Shown piece by piece: positions 11,937 to 54,303 of a DNA stretch of 64,000 bases. A model generated the notes under the pieces. The model was not told where the DNA came from and made no database searches. It saw only the letters and a list, made by a program, of their open reading frames with translations. Position numbers and translations under genes: made by a program. Numbering within the stretch: the first letter of the stretch is position 1; every line of letters starts with the position of its first letter. This DNA is from a virus, in IMG/VR virus record IMGVR_UViG_3300023179_008905, positions 1 through 64,000 of that record; one strand, written 5' to 3'.

Positions 11937-11962
11937 TAACTTAAATAATAGTATAGAGTTAT

Positions 11963-12229
11963 ATGAAATCAAATAATTTATTTGAAGAAGCTTTTTTAAA
12001 GGCTCTAAATGAAATGAATATGGCAGGAGGCTTGGGTAGTGTTTTTGGAGGAGGATTTGTTGATGTAGGCGCAACCGGAGGTAAGGTACCTGGAGCTCCT
12101 AATGACGTCTATGCTCCTAATGATACAAGAGTTCCAAAAGTTCTAGGAATGGGTAAAAAAAAGAAAAAAGAAAAAATTGTTATTCAAAGACGCCCACTTC
12201 CGGGCTTAGGCAAAGAAGTTGTAAATTAA
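11963..12229 (+). CDS. Small late protein homologous to the major capsid protein N-arm
   Basis: Residues 17-61 align with gp23 residues 60-108 (PNDVYAPNDTRVPKVL vs PNDTYAPNDTRLPKIL); TAAATA upstream. Confidence 0.8.
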   Translation: MKSNNLFEEAFLKALNEMNMAGGLGSVFGGGFVDVGATGGKVPGAPNDVYAPNDTRVPKVLGMGKKKKKEKIVIQRRPLPGLGKEVVN

Positions 12230-12250
12230 TTGTTTACACCTAATTACCTT

Positions 12251-12670
12251 ATGGATTTAGGCCACTGGGTATTGACTGAAGGTGTTTCATTAGACGAAAA
12301 TACTTTTGGATTTATTTATGAAATTACCAATACTTTAAATAATAAAAAATATATTGGCAAAAAACAATGTAAATCTAAATTAAAAAGAAAGCCTTTAAAA
12401 GGCAAAAAAAATAAAAGAATAGAAATTAAAGAATCGGATTGGAAAGAATATACAAGCTCCTCAACAGAATTAAATGAAGATATTAAAAAATATGGAAAAG
12501 ATAAATTTACTTTTAGAATTATACGGGCTTGTAGTTCTAAATGGGAATTAGCATACTTTGAAATTTCTGAACAAATTGCTAAAAACGTTTTAATGAGAGA
12601 TGATTATTATAACGGCATTATTAATGTTCGTATCGGTCGCCCTCCTAAAAACTTCTTGAATAGTTTGTAA
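12251..12670 (+). CDS. GIY-YIG family endonuclease
   Basis: GFIYEITN...KKYIGKK, YYNG; likely start MDLGHW. Confidence 0.8.
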   Translation: MDLGHWVLTEGVSLDENTFGFIYEITNTLNNKKYIGKKQCKSKLKRKPLKGKKNKRIEIKESDWKEYTSSSTELNEDIKKYGKDKFTFRIIRACSSKWELAYFEISEQIAKNVLMRDDYYNGIINVRIGRPPKNFLNSL

Positions 12671-18335: not shown

Positions 18336-18371
18336 ACCGATAAATATTTATTCAAATATATAAATAATTTT

Positions 18372-18659
18372 ATGTTATTCGAAAAAGCATTTATCAATGC
18401 ATTGCAACAAGATATATTAGAAGAAGGAAAAGGTTCTCGTTGTACAAAAGTAACAGGACAACAGTCTTCTACCCGTTCTGATAAAAAATATATGAGATGT
18501 GTTAGAAAAGACGGTAAGTTAAAGAGAATACACTATGGAGATCCAAATTTAAGAATAAAAAAGTCTAATCCTTCAAGACGTAAATCATTTAGAGCTCGTC
18601 ATAAATGTTCATCAGCAAAGCCCGGGACTCCAAAATATTACAGCTGTAAGAACTGGTAA
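18372..18659 (+). CDS. Small basic protein of T4-like phages (DUF6321-like)
   Basis: YGDPNLRIK...RRKSFRARHKC...YYSCKNW; TATAAATA 5 nt before ATG 18372. Confidence 0.7.
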   Translation: MLFEKAFINALQQDILEEGKGSRCTKVTGQQSSTRSDKKYMRCVRKDGKLKRIHYGDPNLRIKKSNPSRRKSFRARHKCSSAKPGTPKYYSCKNW

Positions 18660-28005: not shown

Positions 28006-28037
28006 CGTTATTATTTATATTAAAATACAATTAATAT

Positions 28038-46954: not shown

Positions 46955-46997
46955 TATTAGTTTAAGTTTGCTTAATGTATTATAAATAATATATCAT

Positions 46998-48794: not shown

Positions 48795-48824
48795 TAATAT
48801 ATTCTATTGATATAAATAATAGAT

Positions 48825-50948: not shown

Positions 50949-51620
50949 ATGTCCTTTCGTCTACTCGTAGAAACACCTGCTCCAGAAGAGCAGTTTGAAT
51001 ATATTCTAGAGGAAAAAAATCCGAAAGAACCAGCTAAGCTTCATATTCAAGGTCCTTACATGATGTGTAACGAGGTTAATCGCAATCAACGCGTTTATGA
51101 AAAGACTGATATGGAGCGTGAAGTTAGCCGATATATTAAAGAAATGGTTAATACAAAGCGCGCTATGGGCGAATTAAATCACCCTGCTTCTGCAGAAGTA
51201 AATCTTGAAAGAGCTTGTCATATGGTTACAAATTTAAAAATGGAAGGTAATATTGTATATGGTAAATCGCAAGTGCTCTCTACTCCTATGGGACAGCTTG
51301 TTCGCTCTTTAATTAATGACGGGGTTAAAGTAGGAATGTCTAGTCGCGCACTAGGTAAGTTAAACGAAGAAACTGGTGGCGTTAACCGCGTAACTGATAT
51401 GAGGTTAGTAGCTATTGATTGCGTCGCTGATCCGTCGTGCCCTACTGCCTTTGTAAACGGTATTTTAGAGAGCAAACAATTTTTAGTTGCATCTAATGGT
51501 AAGCTTGAAGAAGTTTTTGATAGGTTAGAAAACTCAATATCTAATCTACCTCGTAAAGACGTACAAGGTTTTTTAAAAGAACAGATTTTGACGTTTTTTA
51601 AGTTTTTAAAGACGTCATAA
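50949..51620 (+). CDS. gp21: Prohead protease (gp21)
   Basis: NRNQRVY, GELNHP, GMSSRALG, DCVADPS. Confidence 0.95.
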   Translation: MSFRLLVETPAPEEQFEYILEEKNPKEPAKLHIQGPYMMCNEVNRNQRVYEKTDMEREVSRYIKEMVNTKRAMGELNHPASAEVNLERACHMVTNLKMEGNIVYGKSQVLSTPMGQLVRSLINDGVKVGMSSRALGKLNEETGGVNRVTDMRLVAIDCVADPSCPTAFVNGILESKQFLVASNGKLEEVFDRLENSISNLPRKDVQGFLKEQILTFFKFLKTS

Positions 51621-51659: not shown

Positions 51660-51845
51660 ATGGCCAAAAAAGACTTAAAGAAAAAAGCTAACAAAAAACA
51701 AGTTAATGAGAATCATGAATTAATTAACTTTATTAAGTCTATTTCTCAAAAAAATTATTCTGAGGCTAATAAATATTTACAGAACATTGTCGATTATAAG
51801 TTAAAAGCTAAAATCGGTGATGCTCTAAAAGAAAAACTTTTTTAA
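51660..51845 (+). CDS. Small prohead core protein (gp67/68-like)
   Basis: Position between gp21 and gp22; TAAATA 5 nt upstream. Confidence 0.5.
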   Translation: MAKKDLKKKANKKQVNENHELINFIKSISQKNYSEANKYLQNIVDYKLKAKIGDALKEKLF

Positions 51846-51848
51846 TTT

Positions 51849-52733
51849 ATGGAAAACAACATCACAAAGATACTGAGAGAAGCTACAAAGGATATCCTTA
51901 CTGAGGATGTTCTTAAGGAAATTGAAGCTGCTTTTGATAGCACAGTAAATGAAAGAGTACAGATTCACGTAGAAAAAGCTCTTTCTGAACAAGATGCTGA
52001 TTATTCCAAGAAGCTAGAAACATTAGTAGAAGCTATCGATACTGATCACACCAATAAGCTTAAAAAAGTTGTTGAAGCTATTGATGCAGACCGTGCTGCT
52101 AAATTAAAAACAGTTGTTGAAAAGTATCAAAAAGCTCTTAATGAAGAGGCTAAAAATTTCAAAGAGAATATTGTAGATCAAGTTAGCAAATATCTTGATT
52201 TATATCTCGAAGAAAAACTTCCTTTAGCTGATATAAAGGAAGCTGTGAAGAACAAGAAAGCAGTTGCTCTTCTTGAAAGTCTTCGCTCTTCTCTAGCCGT
52301 AGATATGGCATTGTCGAAAGATACTATTCGTGATGCAGTTATCGAAGGCAAGAAGAAAATAGATGAAGCTGCTAGTCAGCTTGAAGCCGCAACCTCTACT
52401 GTTGCAAAACTTACTGAAGAGAATAAGAAAATGGCTGCCTCTCTTTTACTCGAAACAAAGATAACCGATCTAAGTGAAGATAAAAAGACATACATGAAGA
52501 AGATGCTTGGAAGTAAGTCCGTAGAATTTATCAAAGAGAATTTTGATTATACATTAAAGCTTTTTGAAAAAACAGAAGAGGAGAGGCTTGCAAATCTAAA
52601 GTCTGAAGCTGTAGCTGAAACAGTTACAGCTCATGTTGATCGTCCTGTAATTGAGGAATCAGTTACAACTTCTGAATCTGTTGAAGACGATCGTTCTTTT
52701 GGCGCTTATCTTAGCGAGCTTAAGAAATATTAA
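51849..52733 (+). CDS. gp22: Prohead scaffold (gp22)
   Basis: Acidic coiled coil, YLDLY motif, position before gp23. Confidence 0.82.
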   Translation: MENNITKILREATKDILTEDVLKEIEAAFDSTVNERVQIHVEKALSEQDADYSKKLETLVEAIDTDHTNKLKKVVEAIDADRAAKLKTVVEKYQKALNEEAKNFKENIVDQVSKYLDLYLEEKLPLADIKEAVKNKKAVALLESLRSSLAVDMALSKDTIRDAVIEGKKKIDEAASQLEAATSTVAKLTEENKKMAASLLLETKITDLSEDKKTYMKKMLGSKSVEFIKENFDYTLKLFEKTEEERLANLKSEAVAETVTAHVDRPVIEESVTTSESVEDDRSFGAYLSELKKY

Positions 52734-52812: not shown

Positions 52813-54303
52813 ATGGCTAAACAAATTCGTCCTACACAGGCTTACATCGATGAATCTCGCGCTAAGGTATTGCTCGAGAAGTGGGGTCCAGTATTGGATT
52901 ACACTTCGGACAATGTCCGCGCAATCGAAGATGATCATACTCGTTTAAATACCGCCATCCTCTTGGAAAACCAGGAGAAGTGGTGTTTCGAAGCTAGTAA
53001 TATCGCCGGTGGTTCCAGCTCTGTCTTTAATCAGGCAGGCGCTGGGCTACCTAATGTTGGTGGTACAGGTGGAGTATTCCCCGGTTCCCCTAACGATACT
53101 TACGCTCCTAACGACACTCGTCTTCCTAAGATTCTAATTCCGATGATTCGCCGTACGTTCCCTGAGTTGATCACCAACGAAATCGTTGGCGTTCAGCCCA
53201 TGAGCGGTCCAGTAGGTCTCGCTTTTGCCCTCCGTTATAAGTACGAAGCTGATGCTTTAGGTTCTCAAGTTAACAGCGGTGATGCTGCTCCAAACGTCTC
53301 TGGTCCTACCAGTGGCTGGACAAACAAAGCCGATGGTGCAGAACTTGGCTATCAGTACCTCGACACAAGATACACAGGTCAGTCCGCCTCGGCCCTTTCG
53401 GGTCTAGGTACCGGAAGTGACTTTGAAATTCTTGGTCAGGACCAGGGTGTTGCTCAGTTACTAGCTAACTTTGAGTTAACATCAAAGATTCCTCAGATTG
53501 TCGTTTCTTTCGAAAAGACAGCTGTTGAAGCTGGTACTCGTAGGTTATCCGCTCGTTGGTCAGTAGAATTAGAGCAGGATCTTAAGAATATGAATGGCAT
53601 CGATATCGATACCGAACTCACAAACGCAATGTCTTATGAGTTGCAGGCCGAAATCGATCGTGAAATGATTATTCGCATGATCCAGACAGCTCTAAACGCC
53701 GGATACGGCACAGGTTACTCCGTATGGAGCCCTGTCTCCGCAGACGGCCGCTGGCTCGTTGAGCGTAATCGTGACTTCTATCAGAGACTAATCGTTGAGG
53801 CTAATCGTATTGCTGTTCGTAATCGTCGTGGTGCTGCCAACTTCGTTGTTGCTACACCTCGCGTTTGCGCAATCTTGGAAATGCTCCCTGAGTTTCAGTG
53901 GGCACCAGTCCAGGGCAATGTCAATACACAGCCCGTCGGTGTTGCAAAAGTAGGCTCGCTGGGTGGCAGGTTTAACGTTTATCGCGATACACGTACTGAA
54001 GCTCAAGCTGAAGCATCCACAGGTAATTTCCCTGCTGGTGCTACACGCTCGATTCGCTTAGAGTACGCCCTCCTTGGTTACAAGGGACCTGAATTCTACG
54101 ACACTGGTATCATCTATTGTCCGTATATTCCGGTAATGGTTCAGAGAACTATTGGTCCTAACGATTTCTCCCCTCGTGTTGGTCTATTAACCCGTTATGG
54201 CGTTGTAGATAACATCTTCGGAGCTAATCTTTACTACCACGTAATTATTCTGAAGAATCTCGGTACTGCGTTTACCCCGGGAACTCAGTCGGTTTACTTC
54301 TAA
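52813..54303 (+). CDS. gp23: Major capsid protein (gp23)
   Basis: LLENQ, GVQPMSGPVGLAFALRY, ELEQDLK, EIDRE, YCPYIP, TRYG; codon usage biased toward high expression. Confidence 0.98.
   Translation: MAKQIRPTQAYIDESRAKVLLEKWGPVLDYTSDNVRAIEDDHTRLNTAILLENQEKWCFEASNIAGGSSSVFNQAGAGLPNVGGTGGVFPGSPNDTYAPNDTRLPKILIPMIRRTFPELITNEIVGVQPMSGPVGLAFALRYKYEADALGSQVNSGDAAPNVSGPTSGWTNKADGAELGYQYLDTRYTGQSASALSGLGTGSDFEILGQDQGVAQLLANFELTSKIPQIVVSFEKTAVEAGTRRLSARWSVELEQDLKNMNGIDIDTELTNAMSYELQAEIDREMIIRMIQTALNAGYGTGYSVWSPVSADGRWLVERNRDFYQRLIVEANRIAVRNRRGAANFVVATPRVCAILEMLPEFQWAPVQGNVNTQPVGVAKVGSLGGRFNVYRDTRTEAQAEASTGNFPAGATRSIRLEYALLGYKGPEFYDTGIIYCPYIPVMVQRTIGPNDFSPRVGLLTRYGVVDNIFGANLYYHVIILKNLGTAFTPGTQSVYF

Follow-up and report, generated by a model that had tools for sequence, protein, structure and literature searches.

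Why would a phage keep, as a gene of its own, a short stretch of protein that otherwise forms the N-terminus of its major capsid protein? The question is raised by the window, the 64,000-nucleotide stretch of DNA analyzed here, which is part of a 76-kb record of a lake-water viral contig (about 35% complete). The genes and the segment concerned are as follows.

11963..12229, plus strand: the small gene that is the subject of this report (ATG start, open frame, 88 aa)
52813..54303, plus strand: gp23, the major capsid protein, 496 aa (PF07068, E 1.5e-89; the sole PF07068 gene in the record)
52993..53172, plus strand: aa 61-120 of gp23, from its predicted mature N-terminus through N-fist and N-arm to RRTFPEL, the parental segment of the small gene

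The small gene is preceded by a stop codon 6 nt upstream of its ATG. Residues 19-61 of its product match gp23 residues 63-108 with 29 identities in 46 positions (BLASTP with composition-based statistics, E 4e-17), and the Smith-Waterman score of 150 lies at z 24.7 relative to 2000 shuffles (mean 31.4, sd 4.8, maximum 59). None of the other open frames of the window scored above 45 against the small protein (Smith-Waterman), and a six-frame search of the whole 76-kb record placed the arm sequence at two places only, the small gene and gp23. The two genes use the same codon at just 6 of the 29 identical residues, with AGA, AAA and TTT in the small gene where gp23 has CGT, AAG and TTC, and it follows that the similarity has been kept at the protein level. 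The initial annotation of this locus had matched nt 12011-12145 with 52990-53136, coordinates that realignment reproduced exactly, and its claim that many of the DNA differences are synonymous is borne out by the scarcity of common codons and by Arg (AGA versus CGT). It also placed the start of the homology just past a Glu, which is correct to an offset of one residue (LNE/MNMAGG and CFE/ASNIAGG, with a slash here and below marking the position after the Glu).

Searches of Pfam and PHROGs with the small protein found no family. The HK97-fold body, PF07068, is absent from it, and that model begins at gp23 residue 106, which is where the small protein ends; by sequence, the small protein is a paralogue of the pre-domain segment of gp23 only. 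Predicted alone, it folds without confidence (Atlas pLDDT 0.33), its profile found only a chance match among PDB sequences (E 1.8), and a complex prediction that paired two copies of gp23 (61-496) with residues 18-88 of the small protein (alignments A3 and A2; score 0.00, run without controls) weighs neither for nor against an interaction. It is nearly certain that the gene is real, under selection and a paralogue of the N-terminal region of gp23. The clade that carries it is missing from cultured phages: neither the small protein (tblastn, E <= 1e-3) nor 5 kb of the DNA (megablast) matched any of 50,697 phage records. A description of a small gp23 N-terminal paralogue as a stand-alone protein was not found in the literature.

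How much of gp23 has been copied can be read from the four parts of the protein.

11963..12013, plus strand: leader, aa 1-17, MKSNNLFEEAFLKALNE, with hydrophobic-x-Glu motifs LFE (aa 6-8) and LNE (aa 15-17)
12014..12145, plus strand: aa 18-61, containing YAPNDTRVPKVL, paralogous to the gp23 N-fist together with the fist/arm junction (29/46 identity to gp23 63-108)
12146..12184, plus strand: Lys-rich insert, aa 62-74, GMGKKKKKEKIVI, missing from gp23
12185..12208, plus strand: QRRPLPGL, aa 75-82, equivalent to gp23 IRRTFPEL (aa 112-119) and T4 VRRAIPNL (aa 99-106)

The copy had been described as followed by a Lys-rich tail. The Lys-rich stretch is indeed present, but homology resumes past it (QRRPLPGL with IRRTFPEL). 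All family members have such a stretch, on either side of the RR motif: L053 reads PKILGKVQRRTFPEL and then a basic tract, with RRTFPEL kept, P0212 reads TPMIRRTLVRE, with PMIRRT kept, and L067 reads PKALGGVQRR with the basic tract past it. From these readings the stretch is taken as an insert and not as the end of the homology. Within the close family R76-L82 does not vary, and a set of 35 diverse family members has Y50, A51, P52, D54, R56, P58 and G62 in every sequence and R76 and R77 in nearly all. The YAP of the fist, invariant in the small protein, is looser in gp23 (YAQ, YAS, YAT, YAA). The gp23 of the window is about 33% identical to cyanophage gp23, and HMMER aligns its irrtfp to T4 vrraip, residues 99-104. 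In T4 the gp23 N-fist comprises residues 66-91 (PMC7136217), and L106 is the first ordered gp23* residue of the unexpanded head (PMC9546572). Because the homology resumes past the Lys-rich stretch (RRPLPGL, RRTFPEL and T4 RRAIPNL), the copy spans the N-fist and N-arm of gp23*, which are disordered inside the unexpanded T4 prohead. Judged by alignment, the small protein thus copies this flexible part of gp23, beginning at the maturation Glu and ending at the counterpart of L106.

The family is large. A profile search of 1.84 billion representatives (E <= 1e-3, clusters at 50% identity) returned 329 clusters, mostly of 60-100 aa, and no gp23-length protein stood among the best 150 matches. One profile match, P0170 (708 aa, 10 stretches), was rejected as an unrelated repeat protein and a false positive. 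A word-indexed search found 16 close homologues at 58-86% identity, and in IMG/VR the gene occurs at 196 places; the 80 of these that were retrieved yielded about 40 distinct small ORFs. Orthologues, whose absence from relatives would by the initial annotation have counted against its reading, are therefore plentiful. Selection acts on them: dN/dS in informative close pairs was 0 (dS 0.05-0.09), 0.18 and 0.05-0.08, and the median of 84 pairs was 0.25, values well short of the ratio near 1 that would have counted against a retained function. The small gene is under purifying selection.

The position of the gene is equally constant. In 28 of 28 loci examined, the minus-strand order SbcD-like (gp47), gp55, UvsW and UvsY is followed by the plus-strand small gene, and in the window a SbcC-like (gp46-type) gene lies upstream. 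Two neighboring features bear on its expression and its origin.

11940..11947, plus strand: late-promoter-like element CTTAAATA, located within the 24 nt that separate the uvsY start from the small gene
12230-12670, plus strand: SegE-type GIY-YIG protein, 146 aa (PF19835, E 4.4e-31)

At 25 of the 28 loci the small gene is followed by the GIY-YIG protein, which is 51-88% identical across relatives, and the small gene persists where its neighbor is absent or displaced (L053, L060, L061). The GIY-YIG protein looks more like a domesticated core gene than a mobile endonuclease; it is without a DNA-binding extension and is labelled 'NAD synthetase' in many phage records. By this gene, the nearest cultured relative is the Methylophilales phage Melnitz-3, where it occurs in a different context and no arm-like ORF adjoins it.

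The 24-nt gap to uvsY is conserved, and the element within it, one base off NATAAATA in the window, recurs in the upstream regions of relatives as ATAAATA in 11 of 34 distinct sequences and as [TC]TAAATA in 20 more, mostly at -22, compared to a background of 1.3% of random 45-mers. NATAAATA precedes 15 of the ORF starts checked in the window at a distance of 11-17 nt, those of the portal, protease and gp3-like genes included, and exact TATAAATA is rarer than expected (8 found versus 19). Examples of NATAAATA occur at 46981-46988, 48811-48818, 18359-18366 and 28012-28019 (minus strand). The spacing suggests that late promoters in the window may have very short leaders, and the element would fit a T4-type late promoter, from which we infer late expression of the small gene. 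No RNA sequencing run is listed with the locus, and the one run listed with it in full is a lake-water metagenome, which may be where the record comes from.

The T4 CTS is MKTYQEFIAE (PMC8442874), in which residues 4 and 7 serve targeting and residues 8 and 10 processing, and gp21 cuts after L/I-x-E (PMC9026906). The leader of the small protein is similar in that it ends in hydrophobic-x-Glu with aromatic and hydrophobic residues upstream; among 16 homologues F7, E8 and E17 never vary, and L6 and L15 hardly do. A Glu-ended leader stands directly before x-N-V-A-G-G in 39 of 40 distinct relatives, a pattern read by eye (an automatic 'last Glu' parse of 149 profile matches often fell inside the arm), and the residue two before the final Glu is hydrophobic in most of the relatives, hydrophobic-x-Glu being a short motif. 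The most CTS-like leaders are MKSFKQYVIE (L068), MITFQQFYKE (G014) and MKFKEYFLKE (P0167). In gp23 the last Glu likewise stands just before A-S-N-I-A-G-G, where the predicted site in the window is C-F-E and not L/I-x-E. The predicted mature part of the small protein, aa 18-88, has 12 Lys/Arg to 5 Asp/Glu (net charge about +7) and is thus basic, as in CTS-bearing internal head proteins. Taken together, these features make it probable, if by a modest measure, that the small protein is associated with the head and cut by the head protease. The record provides candidates for the enzyme and the docking partner, and a second gene with a leader of this type.

50949..51620, plus strand: gp21-type head maturation protease, the presumed processing enzyme (phrog_207, E 1.5e-57)
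51849..52733, plus strand: gp22-type scaffolding protein, candidate docking partner for both arms (PF25623 T4_CASP, E 3.8e-5, below the Pfam cut-off; the location between protease and gp23 fits)
18372..18659, plus strand: second small and very basic protein, 95 aa, DUF5754-like, leader MLFEKAFINALQQDILEE (leader HMM, E 2e-4)

Between the protease and scaffold genes lies a Lys-rich ORF of 61 aa (51660-51845, plus strand) with AATAAATA upstream, which could be a small prohead-core protein at the gp67/gp68 position. When the leader HMM was run on the 443 ATG-started N-termini of the record, the sole match besides the small gene was 18372-18659. A perfect TATAAATA lies 13 nt upstream of this gene, at 18359-18366. 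Its Cys-containing product has a weak DUF5754 match (phrog_7595) and 461 homologues in large phage contigs; in 15 homologues that were read, the leaders vary, most ending in h-x-E or LEE, and the basic body is almost invariant. The protein is a candidate for a packaged, DNA-binding internal protein, and a leader common to unrelated small basic proteins is a pattern familiar from the T4 internal proteins.

Relatives of the small protein also carry cargo. Among the 32 members of at least 130 aa, DUF5661 occurs in 16, GNAT in one and cREC_REC in one, and in two genomes from different samples (L053 and L056) a CCA-adding enzyme is fused in frame.

L053:4558-6219 and L056:4558-6219: CCA-adding enzyme fusion (PolyA_pol head, RNA-binding and HD domains)

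The fusion in L053 and L056 occupies the same uvsY-adjoining site and has a leader-like N-terminus, then …YLEE/NSAAG…VQRRTFPEL, then a basic tail. Two layouts were found. In one, the leader is followed by the cargo, which ends in I-D-E, L-N-E or L-E-E immediately before the arm and its basic tail; in the other, the leader is followed at its Glu by the arm and a basic stretch ending in RR-x-h-x-E, after which the cargo begins (RRRLIE/S, RRNLVE/A, RRTFVE/T). A protease-type Glu site splits cargo from module in most of the fusions read, and T4 Alt, which is trimmed at both ends, offers a precedent (PMC9026906). Pfam and PHROGs searches of eight fused members found no family. DUF5661 is absent from the 76-kb record, and no mention of it was found in the literature. 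Two members of 213-222 aa (L047:6001-6666 and L062:4730-5368) have a C-terminal DGNHR motif, ParB/sulfiredoxin-like, that is without a Pfam match. A module that loads head-internal, possibly ejected proteins would be expected to occur in such fusions, and they are hard to fit to a purely structural patch or a decoy.

The initial annotation had further anticipated that the arm would co-vary with its cognate gp23, and it does so by clade in the 12 genomic records that hold both genes, where the variable fist was compared between the paralogues. A fist of the GNQFPSQND type occurs in both paralogues of G003, G004, G005, G009 and c8764, the TGGxxPGxPND type in both of the window and c2417, the [YF]SPP type in both of G006 and the D[FW]YA type in both of G007 and G008. 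After a single ancient duplication, cognate and non-cognate pairs should be equally similar. Instead, the similarity across paralogues peaks within a genome or clade: the score sum of the cognate pairs (1384) was matched by 6 of 100,000 permutations, with only about four or five clade-level co-transitions on the gp23 tree behind this co-variation, the small protein of G006 scores 140 with its own gp23 compared to 52-82 with others, and 11 of 12 pairs have the same N/G residue in YAP[NG]D. In G010 and G014 the co-variation is imperfect. Further, the fraction of identical codons is equal in cognate (0.348) and non-cognate (0.353) pairs, and Arg is encoded by AGA/AGG in 9 of 11 small genes and by CGT in 11 of 11 gp23 genes, and for these two reasons recent gene conversion is excluded. 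Ancient gene conversion confined to the fist is possible. The simplest functional reading is that one co-evolving partner surface would hold both arms. In alignment A3, the gp23 of 15 relatives is 79-93% identical to that of the window, and its hypervariable parts are the N-fist (window aa 61-100) and one surface insertion (about aa 145-210).

The reading that we prefer, to which we give an even chance, is that the small protein is a basic internal head protein that would be targeted to the prohead, cut by the protease and docked in the manner of the N-terminus of gp23 itself. It would be a small, disordered, basic protein of four parts: an amphipathic leader of 17 residues ending in hydrophobic-x-Glu, the paralogue of the gp23 N-fist and N-arm, the Lys-rich tract, and the RRxxPxL that marks the entry point of gp23 into the ordered shell. 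After late transcription, leader and arm would bring the protein into the assembling prohead by the contacts that the gp23 N-terminal region itself makes, be it to the scaffolding core, to the inner face of the shell or to both. Cleavage after Glu17 by the gp21-type protease would then remove the leader, and the remaining basic peptide of about 71 residues would, like T4 internal proteins, stay with the DNA inside the head. In T4 the corresponding gp23 segment lies inside the prohead before expansion, probably on the scaffolding core (PMC9546572), and from that location the copy may be a core-docking or loading module. Since relatives carry cargo domains on the module, with Glu sites at most junctions, it may act as a loading tag. 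The hydrophobic-x-Glu leader, the late-promoter-like element, the basic mature part and the cargo fusions each support, at the level of sequence, a head protein cut by a gp21-type protease. Against it, a CTS of 10 residues suffices for targeting in T4, which leaves a conserved arm of 45 residues unexplained, the gene adjoins recombination genes 41 kb from the head module, and the promoter-like element of the window is one base off consensus. A more tentative proposal, and one that we would hold possible but not probable, is that the gp23 N-terminal region is a scaffold docking element that has been copied as a portable, protease-releasable tag, with which basic peptides and enzymes (GNAT, CCA-adding enzyme, DUF5661) would be packed in the head and so delivered to the host, or else that the arm, as a free peptide, joins the capsid lattice in trans at portal or vertices.

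Two further explanations seem unlikely to us, each to a similar degree. The main idea of the initial annotation was that a free N-fist and N-arm fills armless gp23 acceptor sites after expansion, for example at the portal, and cements them. In T4 the N-fist contacts four subunits and stabilizes the expanded shell (PMC9958956), and the N-fists of the five portal-facing subunits, which have no neighboring capsomer, are disordered (PMC7136217). The small protein retains the YAPxDxRxPK.L and RR that are conserved in gp23 and co-varies with it. Additionally, gp23 searches found no gp24-type vertex paralogue in G003, G005, G008 and G014 (up to 74% complete) or in G000, and with only gp23 and the small gene found, gp23 may also build the pentons of this clade. 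Even so, a Lys-rich tract, a leader of the cleavable type and enzyme-like cargo suit an internal protein better than a patch of 5-10 copies, and the T4 arm moves to the outside while tethered to its shell body, a tether that a free peptide would not have. An assembly regulator that is not packaged is the other explanation: a pseudo-substrate or competitor acting on the prohead protease, the scaffold or free gp23, whose effect would be on the timing of cleavage or on the size of the head, as with T4 Inh or the capsid-length mutations in the gp23 segment. Those mutations in T4 (A66D, A94V and G97S) do fall in this segment, which interacts with gp22 (PMC9546572). The context of the cleavage site is gp23-like (E/xN[VI]AGG), and the co-variation would fit a common partner, but a regulator explains neither the conserved poly-Lys tract nor the fused cargo, most junctions of which have Glu sites.

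An immune decoy, in which the free arm soaks up a host sensor of the gp23 N-terminal region, is very improbable. Capsid-sensing defenses exist, the Lit-activating Gol peptide of T4 starts close to RRAIPNL, and co-variation with gp23 is to be expected of a mimic; the promoter-like element is of the late and not the early type, only about 8 residues overlap with the equivalent of Gol, and a decoy would have no need of a poly-Lys tract, of cargo fusions or of a leader ending in a Glu site. None of the three roles suggested in the initial annotation (filling vacant arm sites, tethering DNA to the inner shell through the basic tail, and an immune decoy) has direct support. Homing-type elements can move flanking DNA and the next gene has a SegE GIY-YIG domain, but a gp23 fragment moved by that endonuclease, or a decaying partial duplication, retains practically no credibility: the GIY-YIG gene is fixed and not roaming (25/28 loci), which rules out carriage, the synteny of the small gene (28/28), dN/dS of 0-0.25 and 329 clusters of intact small ORFs refute non-functional debris, and the leader, the poly-Lys tract and G62 are features that gp23 lacks.

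Returning to the internal head protein, the closest comparison is with the internal proteins (IPs) of T4. Like them, the small protein is small and basic, with a leader in the 10-17 residue range that ends in hydrophobic-x-Glu and a gp21-type cut site (predicted here); one leader type stands on unrelated small proteins of one phage, and foreign cargo is carried, through engineered fusions in T4 and natural ones in the small-gene family. The mature parts are without sequence homology: neither Pfam and PHROGs nor tblastn against the 50,697 phage records, which should include T-even phages, gave homology to IPI, IPII or IPIII. Unlike the T4 proteins, the mature part here is a co-varying gp23 N-terminal paralogue, and to our knowledge a capsid-protein paralogue forms the mature part of no IP. 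IPs are poorly conserved among T-even phages, whereas the small-gene family is syntenic and widespread.

The N-fist and N-arm of T4 gp23* (66 to about 106) are homologous to the small protein and share the start after a Glu, the Gly-rich variable fist and the RRxxPxL end; in T4 they lie disordered inside the head before expansion and are exposed on the outside once it is mature. The small protein differs in being free-standing, without an HK97-fold body, and in having its own leader and a Lys-rich insert, and the fist of the small-gene clade is about 17 residues longer than that of T4, with a YAPxDxRxPK motif absent from T4. As with T4 gp24, a gp23 paralogue is kept alongside gp23, but gp24 is full-length and without the N-fist, whereas the small protein is fist and arm only. 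No capsid decoration or cement (Soc-like) family in Pfam, PHROGs or the PDB sequences matched it. Outside the phages, adenovirus pX/mu and pVII are short precursors that the virion protease cuts to very basic, DNA-associated peptides; virus and protease are unrelated and the adenovirus peptides have no similarity to a capsid protein, and the likeness is an analogy only. On these comparisons, we see in the small protein a putative head protein of the CTS type, with a body that is copied from the scaffold-facing arm of the capsid protein and co-varies with it.

How proteins are placed in a T4-type core, and how the gp23 N-terminus and the core communicate, have been described as unresolved (PMC9958956). 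A natural and widespread stand-alone copy of the core-facing gp23 segment provides a direct experimental handle on both, and the invariance of YAPxDxRxP and of RR flags the residues that matter. The family suggests that a natural protein-loading tag may serve the heads of abundant freshwater and marine myophages. Should the arm instead work in trans in the lattice, it would represent a new kind of capsid cementing.
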